The position numbers and the translations under genes were made by a program. The notes under the pieces were generated by a model that worked only from the letters and a program-made list of their open reading frames with translations, was not told the origin of the DNA and searched no databases. Below are positions 6,831 through 48,023 of a stretch of 64,000 nt of DNA, one piece after another (positions within the stretch are counted from its first letter, which is position 1; each line of letters opens with the position of its first letter). Origin of the DNA: a virus; IMG/VR virus record IMGVR_UViG_3300045988_167732, positions 64,001 through 128,000 of that record; one strand, written 5' to 3'.

Positions 6831-6832
6831 TT

Positions 6833-7303
6833 ATGGTTGATATTAAGTGGCTTTAGACTCAAGAAGGATAGAAAGCTTATTAGACTTGGATAAGAAAATT
6901 AGCAAATCGAGCAGAAGATAGAACAGATATTCCAATTTTAGTAGACACTAACGGAGAAATTTAGGTTTGGGTAACAATAAATAAAAAATACCTATCTAAA
7001 GAACAATTTGAAAAACTCGCTGATAAATCTGATGGTGAAGTTACTACAAAATTAGAATTTAAAACAAAAGATATTATTATAAGAGAGCTTATTTCTATTG
7101 CAAAAAGCAGAGATGCTTTAGCGGATAATGACGATGAAAGAGAACTTTTATGTCCCCTTGTTTCATTGTTTTAGGGAATAGAAGATGCTATTACTAATGA
7201 TATTTGCTATAAAGCTCAAAATGCTAAACAGCTTTTTATAAACAACTTTGAAAAAAATTTAGGAAAAGATGAAAATAATTCTAATAACCTCTTGACAAAT
7301 TAA
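6833..7303 (+). CDS. hypothetical protein (156 aa) with five in-frame TAG codons
   Basis: Hand translation: no TAA/TGA for 157 codons, five TAGs (first at 6854), ends at TAA 7301-7303; absent from the ORF track. Confidence 0.7.
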
Positions 7304-10867: not shown

Positions 10868-11045
10868 GATTGGTGAAAAAGAATTTGTTAATGGAGATAT
10901 CTATTACAATCCTTTTTTTGGGGATTTGTGGATAATTCAAAATAACACCGAGATACGCAAAATCAATGACACTTATACTACTGATGTTAACGATGTTGTT
11001 GGTTTTATATATGTCGGACATGTTGATTTGGAGGTAATACAATGA
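10860..11045 (+). CDS. hypothetical small protein (61 aa)
   Basis: ORF track; overlaps its neighbours in operon style. Confidence 0.5.
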   Translation: MIKIGEKEFVNGDIYYNPFFGDLWIIQNNTEIRKINDTYTTDVNDVVGFIYVGHVDLEVIQ

Positions 11046-11407
11046 GTTATGATATTAGTTATAGAGTTCAATGTAAAGATGACCCTAAACTTTGGGCTGA
11101 TGTTGGAAACTGTGAAGCAAATATTACTTACAATTTGCGTGAAATGATTTAGAAATCTACAGGCTTAGAATGGAAAAATGAAGAAGATAATGGTCTTGTA
11201 AAAGATGTTATTCCTTTTATCATTCATGGTTTAGAAGAGCTTGAAAGATTTCCAAATAAATATAAACAATATGAATCTCCTAATGGATGGGGAACAATTA
11301 GTGGATGCAAGAGTTTTTTTACTCGATGTATTTTAGATTGGACTAATTTTACAGAAGATAGTTGGACTTCTCCTTATAAAGACATTGTTCATTTTTGGAT
11401 TGTATGA
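11042..11407 (+). CDS. hypothetical protein (121 aa) with one in-frame TAG
   Basis: ATGA overlap start; TAG at 11150-11152; otherwise open to TGA 11405-11407; absent from the ORF track. Confidence 0.65.
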
Positions 11408-18320: not shown

Positions 18321-18536
18321 ATGTATATTCCAAAAGATGACAGATAGGTATCTTTACTTTCTTTTACTGGCTGTGATGAAAAGAAATGTCCATGGAAGGA
18401 TTGTGTAAGGCATCCCGAAAGTGGATTTACCTATAATTCTATAGGGCATTTATCTTATCTTTGTAAAAAATTTAAAGAAGTCCCGAAAGAAGTTGAAGAA
18501 ACGAAGGAGAAAGAAACAAAGACAAATGATTCTTAA
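18321..18536 (+). CDS. hypothetical protein (71 aa) with one in-frame TAG
   Basis: ATG after AGGAGAG; TAG at 18345-18347; ends at TAA 18534-18536; absent from the ORF track. Confidence 0.5.
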
Positions 18537-21582: not shown

Positions 21583-22614
21583 ATGGCAACTGTTTAGTAT
21601 CATTATGGTAAAAATAATTCTTTGCTTCGTTGGTATCATCCTATTGTAAGAGGCGTGACTTATAATAATGTGGTGGTAATTGATTGGCCTAAGAGTGAAC
21701 TAAAGAGCGCAAGTATAGATATGTGTACGCAACCAAAGCTTAGTCCTGAAAAAATGTATAACCTTTATGGTTATAAACCTGATGTTGTAACAAACGCTTT
21801 CTTCTTTGATACTGCAAGCGGAACTTCTATCTGGAATTTGAAAAGTAATAATACTGTTTATGCCAAAGATGGTAATTTCTCTAATGGCTGGGGTATTACA
21901 AATTCTGGAAAGATTATGAATGGCGTATTTAACAATGGTGTTGGTTGGAGAGACTTTGGCACAGAATATCCTGCTTTATTTAAAAATAAACAGCCTCAAT
22001 CTGTAAAAAACTATGCTGACATTGATTATGAAGCCAAAAGACAGATGTTCGGTTGGACAAAGACAGATGGTAATCCTAAAAACGAAAAGTATTTTATTGT
22101 TTCTGTTGTATCTGGTGGTATGAAACTTTCCACTGCTCAGAATCTTATTAAATCTCTTTTTCCTGATGTAGATTATTGTTGCAATCAAGATGGCGGAAAT
22201 TCTACTTATACAAACTTTGAAGGAAAGCGTCTTTCTGCGTCTGGTTGGTTAAGACCTGTTGATTCTATTCTTGCTTTCTGGCTTCGTTCTAATGCTGAAA
22301 GAGAAAAAGCAGAAACAGAAGAAAAGAAACAAGACAAGGCTAACAAAAAAGAAGAAAACCGTCCTAAGAAAACTGGCTACCGTTGTCAGTTAGGAGCTTT
22401 TAGCAATTCTACTCGTGCAATTACTTACAGAAATGAAATTAGAACTCTTACTGGTGTAATTGATTATTCAACGGCTTTCTGTGTTCAAGACCCCAAAACA
22501 AAGCTCTATAAGGTCCAAGTAGGTTTTTTTGCTAAAAAGTCTGGTGCTGAAAAGGTTAAGGCAGATTTGGCTGAAAAGGGATATAATTGTTATATTTGCT
22601 ATGTGGAGGAATAA
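21583..22614 (+). CDS. cell-wall hydrolase: phosphodiester-glycosidase-like N-domain plus C-terminal SPOR domain; TAG at codon 5
   Basis: ATG 21583 after GGAG; TAG 21595-21597 in frame with ORF 21622-22614; NAFFFD and NQDGGNST motifs; C-terminus YRCQLGAFSN...YKVQVGFFAKK is SPOR-like. Confidence 0.65.
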
Positions 22615-22979
22615 TGAAAATTTTTGATACTTGTCTTAAAATTGAAGAAATTTTAAAAGGTTATCTTATAGCTTCTAATAAAACAAGCGACAAAAAGAAA
22701 TCTGAATATTATAAGCATGAAGCTTACAGATTAAATTTTGCTACGAGAGAACTTGATTTATTTTATAACTGGGGCTTTTCTAATCTTGTTTATGTACCCA
22801 ATCTAAATCATTGGGCTTGTGTAATGCCTAAAGACTATGAATATCTTAATTCTACTTCTTATCCCTATTCCAAAGAAGACCCTCCTATTATCTTTGTAAG
22901 TGGTAATGTTGATAGTGTATTAGATGAATATTTAAGCGAATTAGATGAATATTTAAATGAGGAAAAAGGTAATGAATGA
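22614..22979 (+). CDS. hypothetical protein (121 aa)
   Basis: ATG 22614 in a TAATG overlap; in frame with ORF 22587-22979. Confidence 0.6.
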   Translation: MKIFDTCLKIEEILKGYLIASNKTSDKKKSEYYKHEAYRLNFATRELDLFYNWGFSNLVYVPNLNHWACVMPKDYEYLNSTSYPYSKEDPPIIFVSGNVDSVLDEYLSELDEYLNEEKGNE

Positions 22980-23277
22980 GAAGAAGTATGAAGTGATTTC
23001 TGATATTACCTCTCCTATTGATTAGGAAATTGCAGATTTTGTTCAGCGTATTATTGACCAAGACGAAACTCTGGCTTCTTTGACTGATACTTTTTTTATC
23101 AGTTATGATTATGAGTATGAAAATGTTTATATTTGCACTACCTATCCACAGTATTTAATTGTAATTAATCACCAACTTTTTAAAGATTTGTGTGATATAA
23201 TTAATGAGTATTATGGATTTTCTGTCTTTGTTAGAAAAGTTGATTCAATTATTAGCATTAAATCCAAGGAAAGCTAA
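22972..23277 (+). CDS. hypothetical protein (101 aa) with one in-frame TAG
   Basis: ATG 22972 overlaps the previous stop; TAG 23023-23025; in frame with ORF 23080-23277. Confidence 0.55.
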
Positions 23278-33497: not shown

Positions 33498-34318
33498 TTT
33501 ATTTAGATATGTATGGCATAGATGAATATCAAGACGAAAAAGCTAAAATCCTTTCTAAAGGTGAAAAGCCTAACAGACATAATATTGTTCAATTTATTGC
33601 GGCTATGACTTGCTTGACGAAAGATTTAGGTGATATGGATTTTGGGGAATTTGTTTATAAAAAGCCTGAGAACAAAAATGATTGGATGATTCTTTATAGC
33701 ATTTCTAAAAAATTCGATGCTATTCTTGAATATTTCTATGAATTGATTGTATGGCAACCAAGTTGGTTTGTGTCTTTAGTAAGTAATGCTTCATTATGGA
33801 GTGGAAAAACAAGTCGAAAGCTGCCACAACCTTTTACTTATCTTAATGATGGTACATCTTATAACAACCTATTAAATAGTAAACATTTCCATATTACTTG
33901 GTTTGATATTGCCGAAAGAAGAGTAGTTTTTGAAGAAAATGAGGTTATTATTAATAAAGCATTTGAACGTGCATTAAACGGCAACAACAAAATTTGTAAT
34001 AAGTATTTTGGAAGTTTGGGATTTTATATTACTCGTCATTGGCATGATTTACAATTTGCATTTGCTCTTTTAAATTATTTAACAATTCGTATTACTCTTG
34101 ATAAATATGAAAAGGAATCTTGTATTTGGCGCACTTTAGAACAACATAATATTATAAATAATCCAAAAAATTGTAATGAAATAAGACAAACAATGGTTAC
34201 AATTCACAAGCTTCATTTGTCTATTAATGCAGTTAATTCAATATTAAATTTTAATTCTGATTCTATTGCTACTGAAAAAGAAAGAGCGCGTAATAATTAT
34301 TACAATTACTGGATTTAA
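33494..34318 (+). CDS. hypothetical protein (274 aa)
   Basis: ORF track; ATGA overlap. Confidence 0.7.
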   Translation: MIYLDMYGIDEYQDEKAKILSKGEKPNRHNIVQFIAAMTCLTKDLGDMDFGEFVYKKPENKNDWMILYSISKKFDAILEYFYELIVWQPSWFVSLVSNASLWSGKTSRKLPQPFTYLNDGTSYNNLLNSKHFHITWFDIAERRVVFEENEVIINKAFERALNGNNKICNKYFGSLGFYITRHWHDLQFAFALLNYLTIRITLDKYEKESCIWRTLEQHNIINNPKNCNEIRQTMVTIHKLHLSINAVNSILNFNSDSIATEKERARNNYYNYWI

Positions 34319-34349
34319 AATAAATTAATTTAAAAAGGAGATAACTATA

Positions 34350-34790
34350 ATGCCTAAATCTCGTATGGCACGCAATTTTAAAGCTCGCAAAAATAGTTCT
34401 ATTAATTACACACTTCTTGCTCGTCAAAAGGAATTTCCTAAGTTGATTTGCAAGAAGAACCTTCCCACTCCTGATACCAAAGATAGTGACAATCCTAATA
34501 ATGTCAAGTACATTCTTAAGGAAAATGATACTCAGTGTACTATCTTCTCTACAGAGCTTAAATCTCAGGATAATCACAAAGACCCTCTTTATTTAATTGT
34601 GGGTGCTCTTACTGGTGCTCTTCTTCTTACTGATAAGGAAATTGAAGAGTATTTTGATTTGACTCCTATGATTGATAAGAAGCTCACCCTTAAGGACGCT
34701 CCTTATAAGAATACTGGCGTTAAGATTGAGTATGACACAAATGATATTCCTACAGATATTGTCGATTTTAAGGGTGCCCCCATTAAGTAA
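34350..34790 (+). CDS. hypothetical protein (146 aa)
   Basis: ORF track; SD AAGGAG; biased codons. Confidence 0.7.
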   Translation: MPKSRMARNFKARKNSSINYTLLARQKEFPKLICKKNLPTPDTKDSDNPNNVKYILKENDTQCTIFSTELKSQDNHKDPLYLIVGALTGALLLTDKEIEEYFDLTPMIDKKLTLKDAPYKNTGVKIEYDTNDIPTDIVDFKGAPIK

Positions 34791-34801
34791 AGGAGAATAA
34801 T

Positions 34802-36940
34802 ATGAAAAAGAATGATTTCCCCACTAACCCCGTAGCTTTTGCTCAATATGTTTGGGAAAATATTGAAGTTGGAGACACATTGGTTGATAGACTTCGCAAT
34901 GTTTGGCAAGTAACTTCCTTTGTAAGTGACGGCAATCGTAAAGTAAGAATTAACATTAGTTGTACTGACAACGAAGATTTTACGGGTTGTTATAACGGGG
35001 ATAAAAAGAAATTAACTCGTTTTGACCTTGCTTCCAAGCAATATATTTATATTGACAACACAGTTGTTCCTATTCCTGCTGTTGAAGATTGGAATATTAA
35101 AACCTTTGTTCAGAACTATAATACTCTTTGGAGTATCCTTGATGTATTAAAGATTCCAACAAAAGAAGAATGCGCAGATATTTTTTCTATTTTTTATTTA
35201 ACTCAAGAAACTGAAAGAGATTTAGAGGAAAAGAATAAGAAGCTATCTACTTGCAGAACACTTAAAGATTTAAAATCCAAATTCTCAGAATACGATTTAG
35301 ATGGAGACAAGCTTCGAGAAAAATGTGTTAATTGTCTCCCAAAAGAGGACACAAAAATGACAGAAAACGAAAAAAATTACTTCCTTAAAAATAAGGGAAA
35401 AACGGGTGTCGATACCCAATTAAAATCCGCATTTTATTCGCAGGAAGATTTGGATGCCGCTATTGAAAAAATTGGTGACTTCCTTGAAACCCATACAAAT
35501 ACTGCTAAAAACAAATGTAAAGAATCCGTTAAGAAATTTACAGGCTTTTCTGATGAGGATTTGGATGAAATTTGTACACGAGTGGTGGACACTTTTTATT
35601 CGGCTTCCGATTTTTCTAAGAAAACTTTCGACGAATTTAAGAGCTGGATGAAAGAAAAGTATAATAACTGTACAAAAGAGGTTAAAGAAGAATCTAAAGA
35701 GGAACCTAAAACTAAGACTGAAACTGTTAAAGTAAACAATAATCAGTCTGTTATTACCGTTGATAATAATGATACGGATACTGGAACGCATAAGGTTGGT
35801 AGTACTGATACAGAACAGCCAAAGCCTGTCTTTAAGCTCGGTGATGTTGTCTATACTAAGGGAGAATCTGTTGGCTATATTTCTCGTATTGGGTATACTG
35901 ATAGATATTGTTATTATTATTGGACACCAATTATCGTTTCTTCTAATGATAAGACACTTAAACATTTTATGGTGGATGAAGAAAGGGGCTTAACTTATCC
36001 CTATGAAACCCATTATAAGCGTATTGGCAATTACCTTATGTCTGACCTTAATTGCGTTAAGGAAATGGCTCGTATTGATTCTGTTTATAAGTTAAGTGAA
36101 GATAATCTTAAGCAGTTTCCTTATCTTGATAAGTATATAAATAACTTTAAAGATAATGAAGACGAAGAAAACGAAGGAGATACAGAAGATACAACCGACT
36201 TTATTAACAGACCTTTCCATATCGGAGATATTGTAATTGATAAAAATGGAAACGTAGGTTATATTTCTGAAATTTGTTCCAGAGATAATACTTGGTTTTA
36301 TTATTATGTTCCTGTTGTTATTGAACCTAACCATATTGCTTTTAAGATTCAAAAACCTCTCGATGTTACCCTTGAAAATTATATTCAAATTGGAGCATGG
36401 GATTTAACTTATAGTGGAGCAAGAAAAAATCTTTCTCGTTTTAAAGAATTTAAGAATTTATCTTTAACTTATAACAAGGAACTCCCCGAAGAACTTCTTA
36501 AAGAATTTCTTGATAGAAACAAAGAATCCCTTAGTAAAAAGAAGACCGATGAAAAAGATAATAATACATCTACAACAGATAATGCAACACCTCCATCCAG
36601 CAGAAAAGTTGTTAGTGCTGATTCACTTCCTAATTATCTTAGTAAGCTTCATCTTACTGATTCTGCTTATAGCTATGAAGTAAATACTAAACTTACTACT
36701 GACATTGTTCGTAAGCTGAATGAAGTTATCGAAACTCTTGATGATATTATTTGGTATCACCTTCAAGAAAAAGAAAGATAGAACGAATTGAAAGGCACAC
36801 TACCATCATCTGAAAAGGTTAGTAATTATTCCTCTGTTTATAATACAGTTCGAAAAAATGCCGATATTTCATGGCCATCATGGAAAAAGGAAGTTTTTAA
36901 TAATAGTTGCGCTATTTCAACACACGCAAAAAAATTGTAA
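34802..36940 (+). CDS. large hypothetical protein (712 aa) with an internal domain duplication and one in-frame TAG
   Basis: ORF 34802-36781 ends at TAG; the frame stays open 53 more codons to TAA 36938-36940, which is immediately followed by a strong terminator. Confidence 0.7.
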
Positions 36941-36967
36941 TGAAGTAATTGAATCATAATTTATTTT

Positions 36968-37010
36968 AAACTTGTTTATCTCATATCGGATAAACAAGTT
37001 TATTTTTTAT
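36968..37010 (+). terminator. rho-independent terminator
   Basis: 13-bp stem AAACTTGTTTATC/GATAAACAAGTTT followed by a T-run. Confidence 0.8.
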
Positions 37011-37119
37011 TTTAAATTGTACTTGGCACCTTGACTTTTATGTGTTATACTATATATGGGTTAATAGAATTTGCCGTATTGTGCAATTATTAATACTACT
37101 TATGTAAAGGAGATAATTT

Positions 37120-38547
37120 ATGGCTGAATAGAAATAGAGCCTTTATCTTAGAGTTTAGGAAAAATTATCTAATGTTTCTACTGTTAATAGTTATAAAGAA
37201 CTTTGTAAATTACTGGACGAACCTGATTATTCTCGTCCTTCAAAAGCTGCTCAACTTAAAAGACAAGAAAAAGAATGGAAGAAATGTTTTACATGGAGAA
37301 GAAAAAAAGAAAAATATACTTCAATAAAAATAGTTTCTCCTGATGAATATTATTTGGCTATTTTAAAACAGCTTTATCAAAATAGCTCTATTTGGGCTTT
37401 CTTTTCTTTTTTGAATGTTTATAGTCAATATACTAATAACGCAAGACTTTGTGTTTCTAAAGGAGATATTGCTTTAGCCGTTGGTTTACAAAATGAAAAC
37501 TATAAAGATTTTCATGTTTCTTCTTATAGTTACGGTAGAAGATTAGAAGAATATACTTTAGGTTTAAAAGATTCTAAATATCCTTTTGTTACTACTCCTA
37601 AAAAAGAAATTAGAGAACAAAGAAAAAAAGATGATGAATCTGCTTATGGTTTAACTAAACGTACACAAAATTTACTCGATGATTATGATTCTCATACTTC
37701 TAAGCAAAATTATTATCAAGTTGAATCTATGTTAAACAAACTTGAAGAAGAAGGCGCTATTCTCCTTCATAAAACCTTTGTGGGAGGATTTATTGATAAA
37801 AAAGCACTTCCTTTTGATGCTGATTATTCAACTATATATGAAGAAAATGGTAATTTTTATTTGCCTGTTAAAAATGGAGAACCTTTATTAGTTACTTATT
37901 ATGAAAGAGCTTTAACAGATGAAGAATTGGCTAACTTCCTTAACTTACGTGGCTCTATAATGGTTGATTTAAAATGTCATGGATTATCAGAAGTTTTCAT
38001 TTCTGGTCAACAAGATGATTTTAATAAGAAACTTTCTAAATCTTAGTTAATAGAATTTGGTGCTTTATTTATTTACCCTTCTTATTTAATAAATTATTCT
38101 TCCGACCTTGTAGCATTAAATCAATCTTATTATAAAACTCTTATGGCTAATTTTTATAATGAACAGCTACTTAAGAAAAATTTAACAGCTAATAATAAAG
38201 AAACACAACAAAAAATACTTAAACTAAAAACTGAAAGATAGTCTAAAGAAAAAGGCAAGTGCCGAAATACTTTTACTAAGCATGATGGAACTGTTGTGTT
38301 TTCTGATAAAAAAGAAGAAGAAGCAGTACAGCTTTCGCAATATTATGAAGCTTTCTTATACGAAAAGCTAAATAAAGACCTTATTCAACTTAATTTAGAT
38401 AAACTTATACCTCAAAATCTTGAATCTCTTTCTTCTAATTCTACAGAAAAAAGCTCTACTTGGGAAAGCTTGTTTAATAAATCTTGGACTAAAATTAAAA
38501 ATACCGAAAATTATTAGAAAAATTAGATTGTGGTTCCAGATACATAA
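37120..38547 (+). CDS. hypothetical protein (475 aa) with seven in-frame TAG codons
   Basis: ATG after AAAGGAG; ORFs 37354-38046 and 38296-38517 share this frame; no TAA/TGA for 476 codons; TAG at 37129, 37135, 37156, 38044, 38239, 38515 and 38524. Confidence 0.75.
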
Positions 38548-38603
38548 TTTGTGAGCCTCTTTAATTGTCATTTTCCCCTTATTTTTTCTATATTTAATTT
38601 TTT

Positions 38604-38690
38604 AAAAGTGTCCTGACTTTCGTAAGTATAATAATTATTTATAATAATAGAGAAAGTCAAGACACTTTTAAAAATTTTTTCGTAGATAAA
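38604..38690. terminator. long hairpin, probably a bidirectional terminator
   Basis: AAAAGTGTCCTGACTTTC pairs with GAAAGTCAAGACACTTTT (one mismatch), flanked by A- and T-runs. Confidence 0.55.
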
Positions 38691-38718
38691 ATAAGGCTTT
38701 AATGAACTTTTTAGAGGC

Positions 38719-38950
38719 TCAAGAGTTTGTACTTCAGCACCGTTATTTTAAAAACCACACGACAGAAAATGAAAGAAAGGTTAGAGTTTGTTGAAGTGAG
38801 CCTTGCGAACGATTACAAACTCTTACTCCTTTCTTCATTTGGCAGTCGTAACCGCGAGAGGATGTTTGCATTATGAAAGAGAGAGCATTAGCGACGGATG
38901 GAGCGTAATGCGACCATCTTTCATAATGATACAAACACCGCATCACGGTG
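38719..38950 (+). other. G+C-enriched structured intergenic element (candidate ncRNA)
   Basis: Two imperfect helices of about 20-25 bp (38767-38840 and 38861-38930); AAGAGTTTGT (38721) and TAGAGTTTGT (38782) compete for ACAAACTCTT (38815). Confidence 0.4.
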
Positions 38951-38951
38951 G

Positions 38952-39013
38952 ATTATCGGCGAAGCACCTTCGTAATAATAAATTATCGTAATGAAGCACT
39001 TTCGTAATAATAA
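38952..39013 (+). repeat. tandem direct repeat (30 + 32 nt)
   Basis: ATTATCG-N-GAAGCAC(C/T)TTCGTAATAATAA twice, directly upstream of the promoter at 39035. Confidence 0.8.
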
Positions 39014-39034
39014 CAAAAAATCTTTATTAAACTA

Positions 39035-39063
39035 TTGACTTTTTACTCTATATCTGTTATTAT
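39035..39063 (+). promoter_or_regulatory. sigma70-type promoter
   Basis: TTGACT, 17-nt spacer, TGTTATTAT. Confidence 0.6.
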
Positions 39064-39200
39064 ATCTATGCTGAGAAAGATAATTGATAAAATATAAGTA
39101 CCTTTCTTTCGTAACACCAAAATTCTGGAAGTTCTTAGTGAAGTGGAGTGCTTGCACGAACACTAAACTTAGAACTTCCCCTGTGAATGGAGTTTGTATT

Positions 39201-39518
39201 ATGAAATCTATGAAACTTAATACCTCTGCTAAGTATAAAAACAATAAGTTCCAGATTAAGTATCTTAAATATAAGAGATATAATATGGTCTTATTTGCTA
39301 CTTACTCTACAGGATATAATAACGATAATGTCTTTTTACATAGATACGAACCTTTTATCTATTTTGATAGAACTTCAAGAACTCTTCATTATGTAAGTGA
39401 TATTGACTATATTACTTACTATGGAGCTGATATTAACATTAAACCTCTTATGATTCGTTTTGGTATTAATGCTTGGAGATATCTTACTCAGGAATATAAT
39501 GAGAATAATCGTGAGTAA
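39201..39518 (+). CDS. hypothetical protein (105 aa)
   Basis: ATG 39201 after TGGAG; a leader of about 130 nt contains the GGAAGTTCT..AGAACTTCC hairpin. Confidence 0.65.
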   Translation: MKSMKLNTSAKYKNNKFQIKYLKYKRYNMVLFATYSTGYNNDNVFLHRYEPFIYFDRTSRTLHYVSDIDYITYYGADINIKPLMIRFGINAWRYLTQEYNENNRE

Positions 39519-39568
39519 TGCTCACGCAATAATAACGTGCTTGATTAAAAAATAAAGGAAGTGTAATT

Positions 39569-40063
39569 ATGGGTTCTATTCTTACTCATACGTTTGGTAC
39601 TTATACTGTATTTCGTACTATTCATTCTATCTATGAGAATACTAATGAGGTCGCTCCTTGTATCGTAGCTTTTACTCCTTGTGATGATATGATGTTAAGT
39701 ACTAGTACTATGGAGTATGAACTTCAAGATATATTCGATACTTTTGATTATCTTTTGAAAAATCAGTTTGACCTTTTTGCTAAGTCTGCTATCTATGAAG
39801 GTAATTCTTCTCCTTTGAATATCTCTGGACTTGTTGATGAAGTTGTTGAAATTATGGAAAAGAATTATAATTTTTATAGATGTAGTATTGAAATTGTTAA
39901 GCCTATTGAAGATGTTTACCTTGAAGAACTAACCGGTATTCGTGATATGAATAAGAAGAAAGAAATTAAGAAAGTTAATATTCAGTTTGCTGACGGTATG
40001 GTTACAGATAAAGATAAAGCTAAGGCTAAGAAGTTGGAAGAAGAATATAACTCTAAAAAATAA
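39569..40063 (+). CDS. hypothetical protein (164 aa)
   Basis: ORF track; SD AAAGGAAG. Confidence 0.7.
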   Translation: MGSILTHTFGTYTVFRTIHSIYENTNEVAPCIVAFTPCDDMMLSTSTMEYELQDIFDTFDYLLKNQFDLFAKSAIYEGNSSPLNISGLVDEVVEIMEKNYNFYRCSIEIVKPIEDVYLEELTGIRDMNKKKEIKKVNIQFADGMVTDKDKAKAKKLEEEYNSKK

Positions 40064-40078
40064 GGAGCAAATTAAATT

Positions 40079-40564
40079 ATGATTACTTATTTTAAATTTA
40101 AAGATATGATTGATATTGCTTATCATAGTAATAATGATTGTTTATATTTGTCTTTTTCTGATGATTATCTTCAAAATAACTCTCCTTTTAAGAATTCTAA
40201 TGACTATCCTATTTATTATACAAAGCGTACCACTGATAATAAAGAAGACCTTGAAAATAATATTGTCAGTATTATTCTTAAGTTACATCCTAATGATATT
40301 TTTGGTTATAACTCTGGTTGCTATATTGAGCATTTCATTAATAAATTCAATAAGAAAATCGGTGTTTATGACTATGACTGGGACAGCTTTTTGAGAGTGT
40401 TCAAAAAACAGCCTTTGCTTAAGTTTACTAAACTTATCATTGGTAACAGTGATGATATTAATGATGAGTACGCTGTTATTTCAGCTTTGTATCTTATGTG
40501 TAAGAATCCTAACTTTGCTACATTGGCAGATGCAGGGTTTAAGTTTATTAATATGGAGGGTTAA
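40079..40564 (+). CDS. hypothetical protein, tandem paralog A
   Basis: C-terminus LLKFTKLI..YAVISALYLMC..AGFKF shared with the next gene. Confidence 0.7.
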   Translation: MITYFKFKDMIDIAYHSNNDCLYLSFSDDYLQNNSPFKNSNDYPIYYTKRTTDNKEDLENNIVSIILKLHPNDIFGYNSGCYIEHFINKFNKKIGVYDYDWDSFLRVFKKQPLLKFTKLIIGNSDDINDEYAVISALYLMCKNPNFATLADAGFKFINMEG

Positions 40565-40567
40565 AAA

Positions 40568-41074
40568 ATGTCTGAACGTATTTATAATTTTCAGGATATC
40601 CTTTATCTTAATTATTATACCGAAGAAGATAGCGAACATCACTTGATTGTTGATAATTTGGCTATTGATATGACTTGGGAGTATTCTCGTGAAAATGCTC
40701 CTTTTGGCAAGAATGGCGATTTGAGTAAGGCTATTGAATTTTGTAATCGTGTAGACAATGTTGTTTATAGAGGTTATAAGTATAGTAAAGATAGCAGTGT
40801 TATTTTTACTACTGGTGTTACTTTTTTGAATTTTACACAGACTGTTCAAGATGCCATTGATAATAAGAATGGTTGGACTATGAAGGGTTTAGCTGAGCTG
40901 TTTGAATCTTTGCCCTTGTCTAAATTTACTTCTCTTATTCAGGTTTGTAGTGATGGCGTTTATATTGATAGTACTTATGCTGTTATTTCTTGTCTGTATA
41001 CTTTGTGTAATGGCTTGAATGTTCCTTTGGTTACTGAGAGCGGGTTTAAGTTGGAAAAGTTTACTATTTCCTAA
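40568..41074 (+). CDS. hypothetical protein, tandem paralog B
   Basis: C-terminus LSKFTSLI..YAVISCLYTLC..SGFKL. Confidence 0.7.
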   Translation: MSERIYNFQDILYLNYYTEEDSEHHLIVDNLAIDMTWEYSRENAPFGKNGDLSKAIEFCNRVDNVVYRGYKYSKDSSVIFTTGVTFLNFTQTVQDAIDNKNGWTMKGLAELFESLPLSKFTSLIQVCSDGVYIDSTYAVISCLYTLCNGLNVPLVTESGFKLEKFTIS

Positions 41075-41117
41075 TTGGTATTAAAAATTTTTTAGAATTA
41101 TTTAAGGGGATACTTTT

Positions 41118-41804
41118 ATGAAGTGGTTTGTTGATGGATATATTCTCAATGTTCATTTTGTCTATGATGCATTATCTGATACTCTTACATTTGATGGACA
41201 GAGTAATAGTATTGGTTTAACTGGTGATAAAAGCCATGCGTGTGATGTTGTAAAAGAAAAAATTTATTGTGGTACTGAATATGTGCGTGATGTTAAAATT
41301 AGTAATGCTGAAATTGTAAAGGATAATTGTGAGCATTACCCACGCAATGATTATTTTACTTTTAACTTTTCTAAAACTGTCACGATTATTAAGGCTATAC
41401 AGATTAAGAACTTTACAAGTACTTTATATAATAGATGGCAGAAATTTGAGAAAATTAAGCCCAATGAAAATCCTATCAATGAATCTTGGACTGATTATTA
41501 TGATTATTATACTTGGTACATTTCTTTAGTAGCTACCTTTAGTAATTTCCTTATGCAGAATTATATTAAGGTTCAAGGTAAAAAGCCTTATAAAGAACTT
41601 GAATCTGATATTAATGCTTGGTTTGATTATATTAAGCGAAAGTATAAAGGTGAGACTAAAGTTAAAACTTTTGATAATATTATGAATATTGAAGATTTCT
41701 TTAGAGCTTTGATGTTCTTCTGCTCTGATTTTAAAATTTTTGGCTACATTGATGGCGGTTGGAATGAAGAGTTAAAGTTCGTTGACAGAGGTTTAATGTT
41801 GTGA
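41118..41804 (+). CDS. hypothetical protein (228 aa)
   Basis: ORF track; SD AAGGGG. Confidence 0.7.
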   Translation: MKWFVDGYILNVHFVYDALSDTLTFDGQSNSIGLTGDKSHACDVVKEKIYCGTEYVRDVKISNAEIVKDNCEHYPRNDYFTFNFSKTVTIIKAIQIKNFTSTLYNRWQKFEKIKPNENPINESWTDYYDYYTWYISLVATFSNFLMQNYIKVQGKKPYKELESDINAWFDYIKRKYKGETKVKTFDNIMNIEDFFRALMFFCSDFKIFGYIDGGWNEELKFVDRGLML

Positions 41805-41877
41805 AAGTTGTGAAAGAAGATATTTTATTTAAAATTGTTTGTTTAATAACAAATCTTTTCTTTTGAGGTAAGGTAAG

Positions 41878-41958
41878 ATGAATTATGATATTGCGCTTGC
41901 TATGGCACTTGGACTTGCATTATTTGCTTTGGCTGTTTTGATGCCTTTGATTTTATAA
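41878..41958 (+). CDS. hydrophobic mini-protein (26 aa)
   Basis: Hand-translated MNYDIALAMALGLALFALAVLMPLIL; GAGGTAAGG upstream. Confidence 0.35.
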   Translation: MNYDIALAMALGLALFALAVLMPLIL

Positions 41959-41994
41959 TAATTGCAAGTATAATATTTTTTATATGAGGATATT

Positions 41995-42126
41995 ATGGAT
42001 TTTAATACTTTTTTAGATTTATGCTTAGCTGTTATGGTCGGAGCTTTAGTAACTGTTTTTGTTGTTCTTCTTTTTTGTGGTCTTGCGTTCATTCTTTATA
42101 ATTTCAAGAAAGTTTTGAAAAAGTAG
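41995..42126 (+). CDS. hydrophobic mini-protein (43 aa; plus 6 aa if the TAG is read through)
   Basis: Hand-translated MDFNTFLDLCLAVMVGALVTVFVVLLFCGLAFILYNFKKVLKK; SD GAGGA. Confidence 0.4.
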   Translation: MDFNTFLDLCLAVMVGALVTVFVVLLFCGLAFILYNFKKVLKK

Positions 42127-42160
42127 ATGTTTTTTATTCTGAGATGAGGTGTAATTGTAA

Positions 42161-42655
42161 ATGAATAAGGAAGAGTTTATTAAATTGCAAAAAGAAAAGT
42201 TTGATAAACAAATTAAATCTGCTTTTGATAAAGAACCATTTGTAACTATCTTTACTGATGCTATTCAGTCTTCTTGCCATGGTCATTTTTCGTATTGTGA
42301 TATGTATAGTGGTTATAACAGTACATGGGTGGAAAATTTTAAAAGATTGTTTAATGGTACTTTAAGATATCATGTCTATACTATTGATAAATGGGTTAGC
42401 TTTAGATGTAAATGTGGATGTAATTCATTTTATATTTGGGATAGTGGATATGTATGTTCTGAGTGTTTTAAGACCTATTGTTTAAGTATTGAAGGTATTA
42501 TAAAGACATTTGTAAATAAAGAAGATAGTATTGCGCTAAATAGAGTTGAGAATGTTCCTACTATTAGATGGCATAAATTTGGTATGATTGATAAGAATGA
42601 ATTTAATGAGTTTATGAAAAATTGTACTAACCCTGAACAGGTTGTGTACTGGTAA
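42161..42655 (+). CDS. Cys-rich zinc-ribbon protein, paralog A
   Basis: ORF track; CKCGC..CSEC. Confidence 0.7.
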   Translation: MNKEEFIKLQKEKFDKQIKSAFDKEPFVTIFTDAIQSSCHGHFSYCDMYSGYNSTWVENFKRLFNGTLRYHVYTIDKWVSFRCKCGCNSFYIWDSGYVCSECFKTYCLSIEGIIKTFVNKEDSIALNRVENVPTIRWHKFGMIDKNEFNEFMKNCTNPEQVVYW

Positions 42656-42687
42656 ATAAATTTACCAAAACAGGAGGTTTATTGATA

Positions 42688-43315
42688 ATGGATAAGATTA
42701 CTTATTTAAGAAAGACTAAAGAGAAAATTAACAAAGAGTATTTAAAAAAATTGCATGGAATAGATGAAATTTTTAAGAGCGATAATGTTCAGATTGCAAT
42801 TTGCGAGCAACGCTCGCGCGTTGATTTATGTCGGGAAGAATATTATTTGTAATAATTTTTATCATGCTATTAAAAATGACGGGACTGTTTCTTTTAAAAT
42901 TAATGAATTGAAGAGTTTATTGAGAGGTAAACTTATTCATCCTTCTGATTGGTTTATTAGTAGATGTCCTAAGTGTGGTTGCTATTTATATTATCCTTGC
43001 GTAAGTACAAGTAAAGGTTATCCTGAATTTGGTAAAAAGGGTTTTGTGGGTATATGTGCTAACTGCTTTGAAGAAAGATTGATTGAGAATACTAAGGCTA
43101 TTAATTTTCCTATCGAACGTGAACATCGCTTACGCGATGAACATGGATATCAACTTGTGAATTATAAATATTATATTAAAGCTGGGACTATGAATAGAAA
43201 TGAACTTGAACAGTTTGTGAAAGAACTTGGGAATAGAAAGTATTGCAATGGCACTTTAATGAGTATTGATAAAGATTTGAATATGTTAGAATTGGGAGCA
43301 ATGCTCCCGCATTGA
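42688..43315 (+). CDS. Cys-rich zinc-ribbon protein, paralog B, apparently split by a +1 frame change near 42847
   Basis: Strong SD AGGAGG serves ATG 42688 (a 54-aa frame ending at TAA 42850); ORF 42764-43315 in the +1 frame has no SD; similarity to paralog A spans both frames. Confidence 0.5.
42803..42824 (+). repeat. G+C-rich hairpin element, copy a
   Basis: GCGAGC-AAC-GCTCGC-GCGTTGA. Confidence 0.6.
43294..43315 (+). repeat. G+C-rich hairpin element, copy b
   Basis: GGGAGC-AAT-GCTCCC-GCATTGA; a compensatory C/G to G/C change relative to copy a. Confidence 0.6.
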
Positions 43316-43494
43316 AATTAGGTGATATTATTGATAGTGGCAACGCTATCGGTTCGTGTAACATTGATAGTGACACTTCTGAAAAGAACACTTCTGAAAA
43401 AGATATTTCTGCTCGTGATGATATTGAAAAAACCATGAAGAGTTTCTTTGGTAATATTTGGGATAATCTTTATCAAGATGAACAATCTTCTTAA
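43312..43494 (+). CDS. hypothetical acidic small protein
   Basis: ORF track; TTG start with a weak SD. Confidence 0.35.
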   Translation: MKLGDIIDSGNAIGSCNIDSDTSEKNTSEKDISARDDIEKTMKSFFGNIWDNLYQDEQSS

Positions 43495-43586
43495 AGGGTA
43501 ATAAGAAAAAATAGAATGAAATATAGATAACAAGATTCTTGTGAAAGTTTGAATAAGTTACAAGAAAGTTGTAAAGTTTGAGAGTG

Positions 43587-43615
43587 AATTATCGTTAAAC
43601 GATAATTTTGTTTGA
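43587..43615 (+). terminator. palindromic hairpin terminator
   Basis: AATTATCGTT/AACGATAATT followed by TTGTTTG. Confidence 0.5.
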
Positions 43616-43630
43616 AGAAAAACGTAGTAT

Positions 43631-43698
43631 GGAATGTTATGGTACATTTAGTACATTTAATGGAATGTTTGGAACATTCTTGGAATATTTGGTACATT
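43631..43698 (+). repeat. seven helically phased GG(A/T)A(C/T)(A/G)TT boxes (iteron- or operator-like)
   Basis: Boxes start at 43631, 43641, 43651, 43662, 43671, 43682 and 43691. Confidence 0.75.
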
Positions 43699-43919
43699 AG
43701 CCCTGACGTACCGAAGGCCAATTTTGCCCATTTTCCTATTCTGGTGCTCTTTTAGGTAAGGAGAGGTAGCCATAAGCACAATCTTTTTTTCAAAAAAATT
43801 TACAAAAAATTCATAATCTGTTCACAATTTAAACAAACCACCTCTAAATGCTCAAAAATTAACATTTTCCATCTCATACCCAAAAAGTAACAATCTGTAA
43901 CCAAAATCTCATTAACTTC

Positions 43920-43948
43920 TTGACAACACCTCCTTCTTATGTTATAAT
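43920..43948 (+). promoter_or_regulatory. sigma70-type promoter
   Basis: TTGACA, 17-nt spacer, TGTTATAAT. Confidence 0.7.
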
Positions 43949-44081
43949 ACTCTCATGGTTGTATAAAGTAGGTAATAAACATTATTGCCAACGACCTAAG
44001 CGTTAAGGGTGAGTAATCTATTAAGAATCCGTATCTTAATATAAGTTATTCATCATATAGACTTAAGGAAGGAAACGATAA

Positions 44082-45083
44082 ATGAAAAACAAGAAATATA
44101 CAATTAAATATAGCAAGCCTAACCATAGCAACACAAACACAAACACAAACACAAACACCCCAACACATGAAGCACAACTCACAAACACACATCCTCTAAT
44201 TAAGACAAGTATTCGTAAAGCGATTGCAACTTGTCTCACATTCAGTTTAGTGGTAAGTGTAGTAGGGTATGCTCAAGCCTTAAATAAAACAGGCGAAGAT
44301 AATGCTTCCAAAGATAATGCTTCAACTTTGAGTGAAACTGAAATCTCCTCTCCTCATTATATTGCCATTAAAAACTTCCAAACACAAAAAGAAAATTATT
44401 GGGACATAAGCAATATCGAAAACATTGGTCCTGATAGAATTTTTTATGTGGACATGAGTAAAATGGTTGAGAACAATGCTGAAAATAATGATGAACCTGT
44501 TTATATTTTTTCAGACATGAGCGTACAGTATTCTAAAGGTCAAACTTCTGGAAGCAAAACTTCTGAACCTGAACATACAGAACCTAAGACCTCAACTTAT
44601 CGCTACGCATATTTAATTCATCTGACTGATTCTGAACGTCATGTAGCAGAAAGCATTGTAGCTGGTGAGAGTGGAAATCAACCCTTTGTAGGAAAGAAAC
44701 TCGTAGCACAGGCTATTTATAATGGTATGCTGAGAGACAATATGTCCCCCTCACAAGTAAGAAAACAATACTCCTATGATGGATATAAGGACATTGATGA
44801 ATTTGAAAAAGAATGTCTTAAAGCCTATGGCAACACAAATGCTGCTGATGAATGTAGACAAGCAGTAAAAGAGATATTCGATAATTATAGTATGCCTACA
44901 GATGATTTTGTATTATTCTTCTATGCTCCTGCGCATAGTAAAGGCACATGGCATGAGAATGCTAAGACTTTAAAGCCTATTACTTATGTAAAAGAAGATG
45001 GAAGCACTACTAATTATATTGGCGGTCATAAATTCTTTGCTTTGAAGAATGAACCTGTAATCAATTATACCAGAGAAGGTTAA
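44082..45083 (+). CDS. membrane-anchored SleB/Hydrolase_2-like cell-wall hydrolase (tentative)
   Basis: N-terminal transmembrane segment; C-terminal AESIVAGESGNQPFVGKKLVAQAIYNGM resembles the SleB-family core; (NT)5 repeat near the N-terminus. Confidence 0.5.
   Translation: MKNKKYTIKYSKPNHSNTNTNTNTNTPTHEAQLTNTHPLIKTSIRKAIATCLTFSLVVSVVGYAQALNKTGEDNASKDNASTLSETEISSPHYIAIKNFQTQKENYWDISNIENIGPDRIFYVDMSKMVENNAENNDEPVYIFSDMSVQYSKGQTSGSKTSEPEHTEPKTSTYRYAYLIHLTDSERHVAESIVAGESGNQPFVGKKLVAQAIYNGMLRDNMSPSQVRKQYSYDGYKDIDEFEKECLKAYGNTNAADECRQAVKEIFDNYSMPTDDFVLFFYAPAHSKGTWHENAKTLKPITYVKEDGSTTNYIGGHKFFALKNEPVINYTREG
44131..44154 (+). repeat. hexanucleotide microsatellite (ACACAA)x4
   Basis: Read directly; encodes the NTNTNTNT run. 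Confidence 0.9.
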
Positions 45084-45492
45084 GGATTTATAATAATCTA
45101 ATTTATTTGTAAGCAAGCTTAGGACTTGAGTACGGTTTGAATATAATTTGGATATATTTTAATTCTAAAATATGGCGAATTTAATTTAGACTGAAAAGTA
45201 ATAATAATTATAATTAAATTAAAAGAAAAAGCAAAAGAAATAGAAAAAAAATAAAAACAAAAAGAAAATAAATAATTTAATTATAATACATTACAAATAC
45301 AAAAGTACAAAGCTACTAAAAATTAGTAGTATACTTTTACCCAAATGATGATGCAACAAAAAACAGAACGAAATTTATAAGTAATTAATATATAATTAAT
45401 CCATAATTTTGTTTAGTTGTATATCTATTGCTCAAGTATGCTTTATACAACCTAATGATGTCTGTAGTAAGTCAAGAAAAATTATTAAACTC

Positions 45493-45521
45493 TTGACAAG
45501 CTACAGACATTTTGCTATAAT
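45493..45521 (+). promoter_or_regulatory. sigma70-type promoter
   Basis: TTGACA, 17-nt spacer, TGCTATAAT; the spacer arm CTACAGACAT pairs with ATGTCTGTAG upstream. Confidence 0.7.
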
Positions 45522-45563
45522 AATTAATGTAAAGAATGTGAAATGTAAAGAGAGGTGTATGTG

Positions 45564-46010
45564 ATGCCGAGAGGTAGACCGAGAAAAAATCCTTTGCCTA
45601 TTATTGATACTGTCACGACAAACTCTAGTGAGAATGTTGTAAAGGAAGTTTCTAGTGAGACTACCAAGACAGAAGATGTTAATAAAATGGGAGTAGAAGT
45701 AGAGACTGTAAATAAAGGTAGACCCAAAAAGGATGACACACCTCGATGTGTATGTTGCAAAGAACCTATTTATTCAGGGCGTAGATTAAATCTATCTTTG
45801 CTTACAACACTTGCATCTTATCATTTTGCTGTAGAAGAAATGCAGCCTTATATTTGTAGTAGGTGTGCTTCTGATTTAGGGGAGGTTATTAATAAATGGC
45901 TCATCAAACATGGAGCAGAAGTTAAGCCATACTATAAGCCAGAATATATGGCTAAGAACTATGATGCTGGACTATCTAAAAATTTAAAGGAGGATAATTC
46001 AAATGGCTGA
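45564..46010 (+). CDS. DNA-binding protein with two AT-hooks and a zinc ribbon
   Basis: MPRGRPRKNP and NKGRPKKD AT-hook cores; CVCC...CSRC. Confidence 0.6.
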   Translation: MPRGRPRKNPLPIIDTVTTNSSENVVKEVSSETTKTEDVNKMGVEVETVNKGRPKKDDTPRCVCCKEPIYSGRRLNLSLLTTLASYHFAVEEMQPYICSRCASDLGEVINKWLIKHGAEVKPYYKPEYMAKNYDAGLSKNLKEDNSNG

Positions 46011-46302
46011 GACCAGTATTGATTTCATTCATGGAGAAGATGTTGCTGTATGGAGTTCTGATTATTTCACTGTAATTAGGACTATGGAGGAATATCTCAA
46101 GAATTATCCTGACGAAATAAGTGTTGTATCTGATTATAGTGACAGTGATGGGCAGAACAGATGTTTGACTATTAAGATTCCTGCTAAGTGGATGAGAAAC
46201 CCCAAGCCTCCCAAGAGTCGCAATTTAACTGAGGAACAGAGAGAAGCCATGGTAGAACGTGGCAAGAGAATTGCTGCTTCAAGATGGGGGAATAAAGAAT
46301 AA
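46003..46302 (+). CDS. hypothetical protein (99 aa)
   Basis: ORF track; overlapping start. Confidence 0.65.
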   Translation: MAETSIDFIHGEDVAVWSSDYFTVIRTMEEYLKNYPDEISVVSDYSDSDGQNRCLTIKIPAKWMRNPKPPKSRNLTEEQREAMVERGKRIAASRWGNKE

Positions 46303-46326
46303 TAAGAAAGAATATGTAGATATAAG

Positions 46327-46362
46327 AAGACCTGACTTTTATAAGTTGGGTCTTTTTTGTTT
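46327..46362 (+). terminator. rho-independent terminator ending the + strand block
   Basis: AAGACCTGAC/GTTGGGTCTT stem (with wobbles) followed by TTTTTGTTTTG. Confidence 0.7.
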
Positions 46363-46671
46363 TGCAATTTTGCTTTGTGGGTGTGAGATGGATGAAAGAT
46401 GGGAGACTTATAAATAAATTATTTATATTTGAGCTTCAATTTTGAAAGATGGGGATTGGGTGGTGTAATTTGATGGGTGGAAAAAGAAATTGATTTTAAG
46501 ATGAAATTTATAAAGAATTGTTTACAAATGAAATGTTGCGTAAATATGAAGTGATGAATATGGAGAGATGAAATTGCTGAATATTTGCTGAGAAGAAGTG
46601 AAAGTAGCGAAGCGGGAAAAAGATTCTCCCTTGTGGTGATTAAAAAGACCCCCCCCGTTGCATCTTAAAAA

Positions 46672-46875: not shown

Positions 46876-47000
46876 AAATAAGGAAAAAGTTCCCCATCAA
46901 AAGGAAAATAGATTCTCACTGAGTAAGAATCTTAACTTATAGCCACTGAATAACTATAAGTGCTAAGAAGTCTAACCCACCCTCCCTACCAAGACTTCAC

Positions 47001-47450
47001 TTAACGGACACAAATTGAACCAATGTCTTCATAACGAACGACTTTGTATTCTTCTCGATTATTGTCACGAAGATGAATTTCCTGAAGTCGTTCATTCCAT
47101 GTTACATAATCGCACCACATATCAGTGCCATCTTTAAGATAAACCTGAGTCACTGGATGCTCCCTCCTTATTTTCTTCCAAAAATATTTTTGTTGTTCAC
47201 AGAAATGCTCATATTCATATTTTTCATCCCTTCGATGGTATTCCTCGTAATACTTTTTAGCCATAGCTAAAGAATCAATAGACTTACCATCTTTGAATTT
47301 TCTTGCTGCTAAGATTGAAGTTTCATCCATTTTAGCAATTCCAATGAATGTGAGAATTGTAATAGGAATTACAATAAACCAAAACAAAGGAACTCCTGCA
47401 AACAGACGAATTAGAATTGCAATGGGAAGACCAATTGCGAAGTAAGCCAA
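47001..47450 (-). CDS. membrane-anchored hypothetical protein (149 aa)
   Basis: ORF track; two N-terminal hydrophobic segments. Confidence 0.7.
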   Translation of the reverse strand: MAYFAIGLPIAILIRLFAGVPLFWFIVIPITILTFIGIAKMDETSILAARKFKDGKSIDSLAMAKKYYEEYHRRDEKYEYEHFCEQQKYFWKKIRREHPVTQVYLKDGTDMWCDYVTWNERLQEIHLRDNNREEYKVVRYEDIGSICVR

Positions 47451-47483
47451 AGTATCACAACCTTTCTTTAATTTTGATTATAC

Positions 47484-47807: not shown

Positions 47808-47880
47808 AAATCCTTTCTAAAATAAATAGTTTAATTGTTGAGGTTAATTTGTAAGAAAGGGGAGATTTCTCTCCCCAATC

Positions 47881-47964
47881 TTATTTTGCTCTACCAATGA
47901 GCCACAGGATTGCGATTGCAATCTCAAAACAAAGTAACACACCTTCGATGGTTATACACTTCAC
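47881..47964 (-). CDS. hydrophobic mini-protein (27 aa)
   Basis: GTG start 4 nt after AGGAGG; MKCITIEGVLLCFEIAIAILWLIGRAK; followed by the GGGGAGA/TCTCCCC hairpin. Confidence 0.35.
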   Translation of the reverse strand: MKCITIEGVLLCFEIAIAILWLIGRAK

Positions 47965-48023
47965 CTCCTTTCATTAAATTTTAAAGAATCTACATATACA
48001 TCACCTCCTTTCTTATTATAAAT

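Follow-up and report, generated by a model that had tools for sequence, protein, structure and literature searches.

Probable use of TAG as a glutamine codon in a gut phage that encodes a tRNA-CUA and a gene with seven in-frame TAGs

This report concerns a gene with seven in-frame TAG codons (hereafter the target gene) at positions 37120-38547, on the + strand, of a DNA segment of 64,000 nt that is referred to as the window and corresponds to positions 64,001-128,000 of IMG/VR record IMGVR_UViG_3300045988_167732. With an estimated probability of about 0.92, the phage from which the window derives reads TAG as glutamine (genetic code 15) using a suppressor tRNA of its own, and the target would be an intact gene under selection. 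This reading is carried by the open frame itself, its conservation, the equivalence of TAG and glutamine codons among homologs, a phage gene for a tRNA with a CUA anticodon (tRNA-CUA) and the uneven distribution of TAG. The codon is confined to a subset of genes, comprising a dense block, genes for homing endonucleases and some isolated genes, the target among them. A preliminary description of the window, made from its sequence alone, had proposed a TAG-to-glutamine recoding of the type known from gut phages, and the alignment columns, the tRNA-CUA gene and the evidence of selection described below support that proposal.

Reading frame of the target gene

The frame of the target gene runs from ATG 37120 to TAA 38545-38547 and comprises 476 codons including the stop. 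It contains no TAA or TGA, and TAG is found in it at 37129, 37135, 37156, 38044, 38239, 38515 and 38524. All coordinates given for these elements and for the ribosome-binding site in the preliminary description were correct, and the two fragments called under translation table 11 (37354-38046 and 38296-38517) lie in the target frame, as it had stated. The features of the gene and its surroundings are the following:

37120..38547, + strand: target gene with 7 in-frame TAGs, 475 codons plus TAA stop (frame reading, 13 distinct full-length homologs)
37106..37112, + strand: Shine-Dalgarno sequence AAAGGAG, 7 nt 5' of ATG 37120 (direct reading; the leader is also kept in locus L104, see below)
37129..37158, + strand: cluster of three TAGs at codons 4, 6 and 13 (37129, 37135, 37156)
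38044..38046, + strand: in-frame TAG at codon 309, opposite Leu in more distant homologs
38239..38241, + strand: in-frame TAG at codon 374, where homologs with a sense codon all have Gln (CAA/CAG)
38515..38526, + strand: pair of in-frame TAGs at codons 466 and 469 (38515, 38524) in a variable C-terminal tail
37023..37051, + strand: promoter-like site TTGGCA-17-TATACT with upstream TG, 5' of the target (consensus match only; region kept in L104)
36967..37002, + strand: terminator-like hairpin with T-run at the end of the preceding transcription unit (sequence match only)

The open frame is far beyond chance expectation, in agreement with the earlier judgement that so long an open stretch was unlikely to be accidental. 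Based on base composition, the probability of 476 codons without TAA or TGA is 6e-13, or ~8e-8 when all frame positions are counted, and in 100 shuffles of the window the longest run free of TAA and TGA comprised 216 codons. The two remaining frames of this stretch contain 16 and 66 TAA/TGA codons. Between the third TAG and position 37354, no ATG, GTG or TTG is present in the target frame, so that most of the protein has no TAG-free route to translation.

The non-coding gap of 540-650 nt on the 3' side of the target contains an inverted repeat of 18 nt (17/18 complementary) with an AT-rich loop of 30 nt (38604-38669), which overlaps promoter-like hexamers on both strands.

Conservation and equivalence of TAG and glutamine codons

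Full-length relatives of the target protein at 99, 66, 67 and 40% identity were retrieved from a large protein collection. The 13 distinct homologs used for comparison were taken from these proteins (P0001-P0004) and ten IMG/VR loci (L009-L018), with sequences from ENA, NCBI (GCA_900525855.1), Logan and IMG/VR. None of the contigs encoding the database proteins translates under table 11. All 13 homologs stay open over 460-490 codons, with 3-9 in-frame TAGs each and without any TAA or TGA. Some TAG sites are common to several homologs and others lie at different positions; at codon 4 as at codon 6, TAG is present in 11 of the 13, and at codon 13 in all except one, which has Val. A distant homolog (P0033, locus L067) is free of TAG.

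The residue aligned with TAG, whose identity had been suggested as a check in the preliminary description, was most often glutamine, which occupies 81/201 of the aligned cells compared with a background of 4.1%. In 17 of the 23 alignment columns that contain TAG, including columns with otherwise invariant Gln, another homolog has CAA or CAG. At codon 374, for instance, the group that includes the window has TAG, while all other homologs have CAA or CAG as part of an invariant R-Q pair. CAG accounts for 6/21 of the Gln partners of TAG versus 9% of all Gln codons, an over-representation that would be expected from the single C/T step between CAG and TAG.

When TAG was counted as Gln, comparison with the four closest relatives gave a dN/dS of 0.05-0.08 for the whole gene; 3' of the fourth TAG, the substitutions are too few for a separate value. 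Judged from these comparisons, the target is a real open reading frame (ORF) under purifying selection.

Phage origin of the window and its suppressor tRNA

PHROG and Pfam matches on both strand blocks of the window are of phage type or mobile-element type, and the relatives of the window are viral contigs of 148-217 kb. Exact look-up of the window proteins led to scaffold_22 of ENA assembly ERZ28659889 (220,795 bp). A segment of this scaffold (L019) is 100% identical to window positions 1-11933, another segment (L023) is 100% identical to positions 49958-64000, and L019 to L022 match the window at 99.96-100% identity. On this basis, the entire window is phage DNA and part of a gut phage genome of ~220 kb, one of a family of contigs of ~215-220 kb. 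The possibility that the - strand block at 47-64 kb represents host DNA around a prophage was rejected because of its PHROG matches and its synteny in viral contigs of 215 kb.

No tRNA was detected within the window using ARAGORN, as had been noted before; a scan for a tRNA with a CUA anticodon, suggested at the same time, located one ~4.85 kb upstream. From 8.7 kb 5' of the first base of the window, ARAGORN reported genes for tRNA Ser-UGA, Arg-CCG, Gln-UUG and Arg-UCU, followed by a tRNA with a CTA anticodon that is the last gene of this upstream array. The program labels it 'Pyl', its default name for that anticodon. The array (L019 1-3853, window -8700 to -4847) also contains small genes and interspersed homing-endonuclease genes. 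In relatives (L055, L044, L048 and L050, positions 1-13500), the corresponding region comprises at least 17 tRNAs in ~13 kb. Several tRNA-like stretches in the array are interrupted, with Rfam tRNA matches of 133-157 nt. The tRNA-CUA genes are located as follows:

L019 3779-3853 (4,847-4,921 nt upstream of the window): tRNA with anticodon CUA of the window's genome (ARAGORN; Rfam tRNA, 45.5 bits)
L027 3781-3851, L033 ~3509-3801, L038 ~2552-2844, and L029 and L036 (after tRNA-Arg(UCU)): further tRNA-CUA alleles or loci in relatives

A tRNA-CUA gene occupies the same position in 15/15 close relatives, following tRNA-Arg(UCU) without interruption in 11 and carrying an intron of 219 nt in 4. No tRNAs were found at this site in the more distant similar phages L039-L043. 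The close relatives harbour four dissimilar alleles at this one fixed site. In each of them, the bases of the first pair do not pair (U·U or U·C), position 73 is G and the loop reads CU-CUA-AA. Both G73 and a 1:72 position without pairing are features used by glutaminyl-tRNA synthetase (GlnRS) and favour charging with Gln, and in comparison with the Escherichia coli suppressor supE, G73 together with a weak or unpaired 1:72 pair fits recognition by this enzyme. The identity of the alleles to the phage tRNA-Gln(UUG) is 0.58-0.65, and derivation from it is not obvious.

Two of the four alleles carry a 219-nt intron, at different sites of the anticodon loop; it follows U35 in one type and U33 in the other. 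Using aragorn -i, a tRNA(cta) with a 219-nt intron was called in 3 of the 4 interrupted loci; at the fourth locus, a construct spliced so that the 5' exon ends in U and the intron in G folds as tRNA-CUA. The TTA/TTG and CTG anticodons initially read in the interrupted genes were discarded as artefacts of the unspliced sequence, as all are CUA according to group I splice rules and aragorn -i. The Rfam group I model (Intron_gpI) matches the entire intron of L038 at 35.6 bits (E = 1.4e-7), below the gathering threshold of 50, and the other intron type gave no Rfam match. GIY-YIG-like genes with many in-frame TAGs lie directly 3' of three of the four intron-bearing tRNA-CUA loci (L029 ~2952-3900; L036; L038 ~2959-3900). 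This arrangement suggests a turnover of the suppressor locus driven by homing endonucleases.

Distribution of TAG over the genome family

Genes were called under code 15 with a caller that combines codon-usage log-odds and a ribosome-binding-site score, using 79.7 kb composed of the L019 flank, the window and the L023 flank. The 141 genes obtained contain 516 CAA/CAG codons and 26 in-frame TAGs, and the greater part of the window has no TAG. The TAGs are clustered in few genes, the observed per-gene maximum being reached in 0/2000 permutations (P < 0.0005). They are also enriched in the first 20 codons, where 9/26 TAGs are located as opposed to 55/516 CAA/CAG codons (Fisher p = 0.0016), some of the start sites being our own calls. 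All 44 genes on the - strand of this extended contig are free of TAG, in line with what had been described for the window.

To follow the codon beyond the window, genes were sampled along IMG/VR contig 3300045988_164340 (216 kb), a relative with ~92% identity. TAG is present in 20/123 of the sampled genes overall and in 8/105 genes of the early-looking blocks. From ~166.95 kb onwards, in contrast, 12/18 genes contain TAG, with 36 TAGs versus 161 CAA/CAG codons. In this recoded block, table 11 yields 24 genes at a coding density of 0.669 and code 15 yields 18 genes at 0.885; the same comparison, which had been recommended previously, raised the density from 0.848 to 0.880 in the window. Total ORF length was dropped as a test of the code because any stop turned into a sense codon lengthens ORFs, and TAA does so most. 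Genes of the recoded block with recognizable features include:

L078 10632-13547: YonO-like single-subunit RNA polymerase, 971 residues, 1 TAG (Pfam RdRP PF05183, phrog_8308), at the start of the block
Recoded block of the relative: endolysin with CHAP and PG_binding_1 domains, 4 TAGs
L099 11644-15864: terminase-like gene with an intein-like/LAGLIDADG-like insert, 7 + 1 TAGs (sequence motifs only), parted from its own C-terminal part by a GIY-YIG gene with 5 TAGs

The TAG-bearing genes of the tRNA array are homing-endonuclease genes, of the types HNH, HNH_3 with NUMOD1, PDDEXK_5 with NUMOD1, and GIY-YIG. The GIY-YIG gene contains 10 TAGs and 2 CAA/CAG codons, and the two HNH-type genes in the upstream flank of the window contain 2 and 4 TAGs.

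The - strand block of the window (47000-64000) and its continuation (L023 1-6968) are free of TAG and encode two PcfJ-like proteins as well as DUF932, SprT-like, DUF6551 and HNH endonuclease proteins. These gene types are typical of conjugative elements, and the HNH gene has no TAG, unlike the endonuclease genes of the tRNA array. A gene with DUF2828/DUF7788 (TROVE/Ro-like; phrog_850, 'RNA-binding protein') is located at 7423-9144, a few kilobases from the tRNA array.

Other TAG-bearing genes and TAG at gene ends in the window

At least four further TAG-bearing genes were found in the window that had been missed in the preliminary description. Together with two genes in which TAG is the first stop, they are listed here:

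6833..7303, + strand: gene of 156 codons with TAG at 6854, 6869, 6881, 6962 and 7172 (TAGs kept in homologs)
11042..11407, + strand: gene of 121 codons whose one TAG (11150) falls within a conserved domain (phrog_4019 match to residues 1-93, spanning the TAG)
21583..22614, + strand: gene for a SPOR-domain protein, putative start ATG 21583, ribosome-binding site GGAG, TAG at codon 5 (21595)
22972..23277, + strand: small gene of 101 codons with TAG 23023 at codon 18 (TAG kept in L016, the single relative compared)
18321..18536, + strand: possible small gene, 71 codons long, TAG at 18345 (weak; codon-usage score only)
30183..31502, + strand: TnpB (IS605 OrfB-type; Pfam and PHROG matches) with TAG 31500 and read-through of +4 codons to TAA 31512-31514
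34802..36940, + strand: gene of 659 codons to TAG 36779 or 712 codons to TAA 36938-36940

In the gene at 6833-7303, TAG 7172 is replaced by CAA/CAG in most relatives, and a distant TAG-free group has Q opposite TAG 6869. TAG 11150 aligns with Gln in L027 and L037 and with R or I elsewhere. Orthologs of these two genes in L039-L043 (contigs of ~150-220 kb) lack TAG, so that L039-L043 and L067 are apparently standard-code relatives.

With TAG read through, 116/141 genes end in TAA and 25/141 in TGA. TAG is the first stop in at most 4-5 of the 141 genes, each of which reaches a TAA or TGA 4-53 codons further on. The earlier statement that no gene in the window requires TAG as its terminator was thus borne out for the ORFs at 31500, 36779 and 42124, where another stop follows after 4, 53 and 7 codons, respectively. 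TAG 36779 and the open extension of 52 codons behind it are kept in 6/7 relatives, the remaining one (L011) having a true stop at this position. Substitutions in the extension show no third-position excess, and the same holds for the upstream C-terminal part of the gene. The TnpB gene (with a Cas12f-like TNB domain) was found in only some relatives.

Weighing of the explanations

A number of observations weigh against the reading of TAG as glutamine. In the ~110-120 kb scanned from the genome family, neither a GGQ release-factor-like motif nor a gene for an aminoacyl-tRNA synthetase was detected, the DNA used for the GGQ scan covering about half of the genome; genes of both kinds had been put forward as something to look for. 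The assignment of Gln rests on sequence comparison, and the Q residues in database proteins P0001-P0006 reflect the code chosen by the gene caller and do not count as data. If the host has no GlnRS, charging of the CUA tRNA with Gln would need another route. The tRNA-CUA of the window's genome is 0.64 identical to the phage tRNA-Tyr as opposed to 0.59 to tRNA-Gln, and its T-loop is non-canonical. The dense recoded block was observed in relative 3300045988_164340 and not in the window's own genome, and it contains two large structural-looking genes with 0 TAGs. A weak candidate for a cell-wall hydrolase or endolysin at 44082-45083 (Hydrolase_2, E = 0.007; PHROG endolysin, E = 1.5e-5) has 11 CAA/CAG codons and 0 TAGs, unlike the CHAP endolysin of the relative. 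Considering this candidate and the TAG-free structural-looking genes, recoding of late genes is not a clean rule: the concentration in late genes expected in the preliminary description agrees with the endolysin/terminase-like block but not with the homing endonucleases, the isolated genes in early-looking blocks or the two TAG-free structural-looking genes. Finally, TAG 31500 of the TnpB gene stands at the same codon as TAA or TGA in relatives. By this alignment, the codon marks a real stop that is backed up by a TAA, and the earlier view of TAG terminators is to be qualified here: the backup stop exists, but the TAG occupies the true stop position of the relatives.

The state of TAG 31500, the real stop of L011 at the position of TAG 36779 and the failure to find release factor 2 (RF2) or a gene modifying a release factor in the scanned DNA would all suit an explanation in which TAG is mainly a stop, truncated products dominate and read-through occurs at low efficiency or through a host suppressor. 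Seven TAGs, three of them within the first 13 codons, would then leave practically no protein, yet a frame of 475 codons is strongly selected; moreover, the family retains a dedicated tRNA-CUA, and table 11 leaves one third of the recoded block non-coding. We consider this explanation highly unlikely. It is also quite unlikely that TAG is a sense codon for an amino acid other than Gln, such as Tyr or pyrrolysine. Tyr is suggested by the T-arm (GGGTCGGCACC) and the anticodon arm that the tRNA-CUA of the window's genome has in common with the phage tRNA-Tyr(GUA), and by one TAG column that aligns chiefly with Tyr, whereas pyrrolysine is suggested by the 'Pyl' label, which ARAGORN gives to any CTA anticodon. 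Gln stands opposite TAG much more often than any other residue (81/201 cells, 17/23 columns), also in columns in which it is invariant, while Tyr stands opposite TAG in this 1 column and Lys in few. Bacterial tRNA-Tyr has a long variable arm and A73, neither of which is present in the tRNA-CUA, where G73 and an unpaired 1:72 position are found; no pyl-related matches were obtained among the scanned proteins of the window and its relatives.

Translation with table 11 interrupts the target frame at seven points, and its entries in public records are fragments, as would be expected of a decaying pseudogene whose TAGs are ordinary nonsense mutations. The chance that this applies is very slight. 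Decay would be expected neither to produce only TAG among seven stops (P = 8e-5 if stop type were random) nor to spare 476 AT-rich codons from TAA and TGA (P = 6e-13), and the 13 homologs, with identities as low as 40%, preserve the entire frame without frameshifts or mixed stop types. The low dN/dS (0.05-0.08) and the alternation of TAG with CAA/CAG point in the same direction. Sequencing or assembly errors, in favour of which no point was found, can be regarded as a practically negligible cause, since independently made assemblies (ENA, NCBI GCA_900525855.1, Logan and IMG/VR) have TAG at the same positions and the segments L019 to L022 and L023 match the window at 99.96-100% and 100% identity, respectively.

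Proposed mechanism

If TAG is read as glutamine, host release factor 1 (RF1) would terminate translation at TAG early in infection. Because TAG stands at codons 4, 6 and 13, the target would at this stage yield only a peptide of 3 residues. As the phage tRNA-CUA accumulates and is charged with Gln, TAG-bearing genes would become translatable, so that TAG would not only be a codon but would also gate translation. We infer the charging with Gln, the competition with RF1 and the timing of these steps.

A more far-reaching idea, which we put forward tentatively and think rather doubtful, is that amber codons within the first 5-20 codons act as a translational lock on genes in an otherwise standard-code block, with the tRNA-CUA as a rapidly exchanged cassette. 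The genes locked in this manner may form a small set, consisting of the target, the gene at 6833-7303, the gene for the SPOR-domain protein and the homing-endonuclease genes. Were this idea true, the supply of suppressor would be contested among co-infecting phages and selfish elements and would not simply be a timer for late genes.

Function and structure of the target protein

No significant match to the target protein was obtained with sequence profiles from Pfam, PHROG and the PDB. An exhaustive profile search returned 138 cluster representatives, all of them unnamed and many of them short, as table-11 calling makes them. In the GenBank phage collection, neither megablast of window positions 30000-46500 nor tblastn of the target gave any matches, and the conserved DUF2828 protein has relatives there at <=37% identity only. 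An AlphaFold2 model based on 36 sequences reached a pLDDT of 88.9 and a pTM of 0.85. When it was compared with the PDB using Foldseek, nothing below E = 0.47 and only faint winged-helix resemblances were found, and against BFVD only uncharacterized phage proteins. The N-terminal ~60 residues are modelled as a winged-helix-like helix-helix-helix-hairpin module.

The first ~60 residues recur fused to a GIY-YIG domain in P0005. Locus L104 (142-2443) comprises a GIY-YIG gene with the promoter, leader and first ~60 codons of the target, followed by a divergent full-length allele (453 aa). The target itself was therefore rejected as a homing-endonuclease gene, as L104 shows a GIY-YIG gene that captured the 5' end beside a full-length allele. 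The target gene looks like a homing target rather than an endonuclease gene, and L104 looks like a free-standing homing endonuclease adjoining a resistant allele of its target.

Close database relatives are annotated as Siphoviridae sp. ctLqe90 or 'Bacteriophage sp.' (A0A8S5Q2N7, A0A8S5Q3H4, A0A8D9PEP9) and are 65-98% identical to parts of the target; the BFVD entries of ctLqe90 with 170 and 102 aa are 94-98% identical. These UniProt entries are separate uncharacterized fragments of 102-352 aa, as table-11 calling would give, and evidently stem from the same phage family.

Significance and comparison with known systems

For annotation, the results mean that table 11 fragments the target and other genes, public entries for the protein being uncharacterized pieces only. 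The gain in coding density within the window is ~3 points, and detectors that rely on density, such as the 10% rule for recoding (PMC13037316), would miss the recoding if they were given this region. The family adds one more well-supported case to those in which reassignment of a stop codon gates the translation of particular phage genes, and both its clearly delimited set of gated genes and its polymorphic suppressor-tRNA locus are open to experiment.

Phages with TAG-to-Gln recoding (code 15) are said to have been described by Ivanova et al. in 2014. E. coli supE (glnV) likewise is a tRNA that reads UAG and inserts Gln; the tRNA described here differs in that it is encoded by a phage and serves a genome with TAG as a regular codon. 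In common with code-15 gut phages, the family has TAG opposite Gln in conserved genes, a phage tRNA-CUA and a fraction of recoded genes; lysis and packaging genes are recoded, many early-looking genes are standard, and related lineages do not recode. The account with the best support is the one published for such phages (Borges et al., bioRxiv 10.1101/2021.08.26.457843; Peters et al., PMC9523058; PMC13037316), in which the host machinery translates TAG-free genes and the TAG-bearing genes can be translated only once the phage has supplied a tRNA-CUA that inserts Gln. In the work of Peters et al., metaproteomics was applied to crAss-like phages. The preferential recoding of homing endonucleases has a parallel in the intron homing endonuclease of the Agate clade (Borges et al.), and introns in phage tRNAs have been reported as well (PMC13037316). 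In terms of size, the contigs of 206-221 kb, the low recoded fraction (20/123) and the dispersed recoded modules resemble the Sapphire clade, which measures 201 +/- 22 kb and has a TAG-recoded representative with ~26% of genes recoded (Borges et al.), a likeness that is based on description only. Unlike in code-15 gut phages, the DNA scanned here yielded neither RF2 nor an aminoacyl-tRNA synthetase, the target is an isolated, TAG-rich gene within a TAG-free block, and TAGs are concentrated in the first 20 codons of genes.

TAG-to-Gln recoding of the kind found here is already well described for phages, and nothing in the present case is different in principle. Less ordinary are the clustering of TAGs near the 5' end of isolated genes, the abundance of TAG in homing-endonuclease genes and the polymorphism and introns of the suppressor locus, which represent leads.

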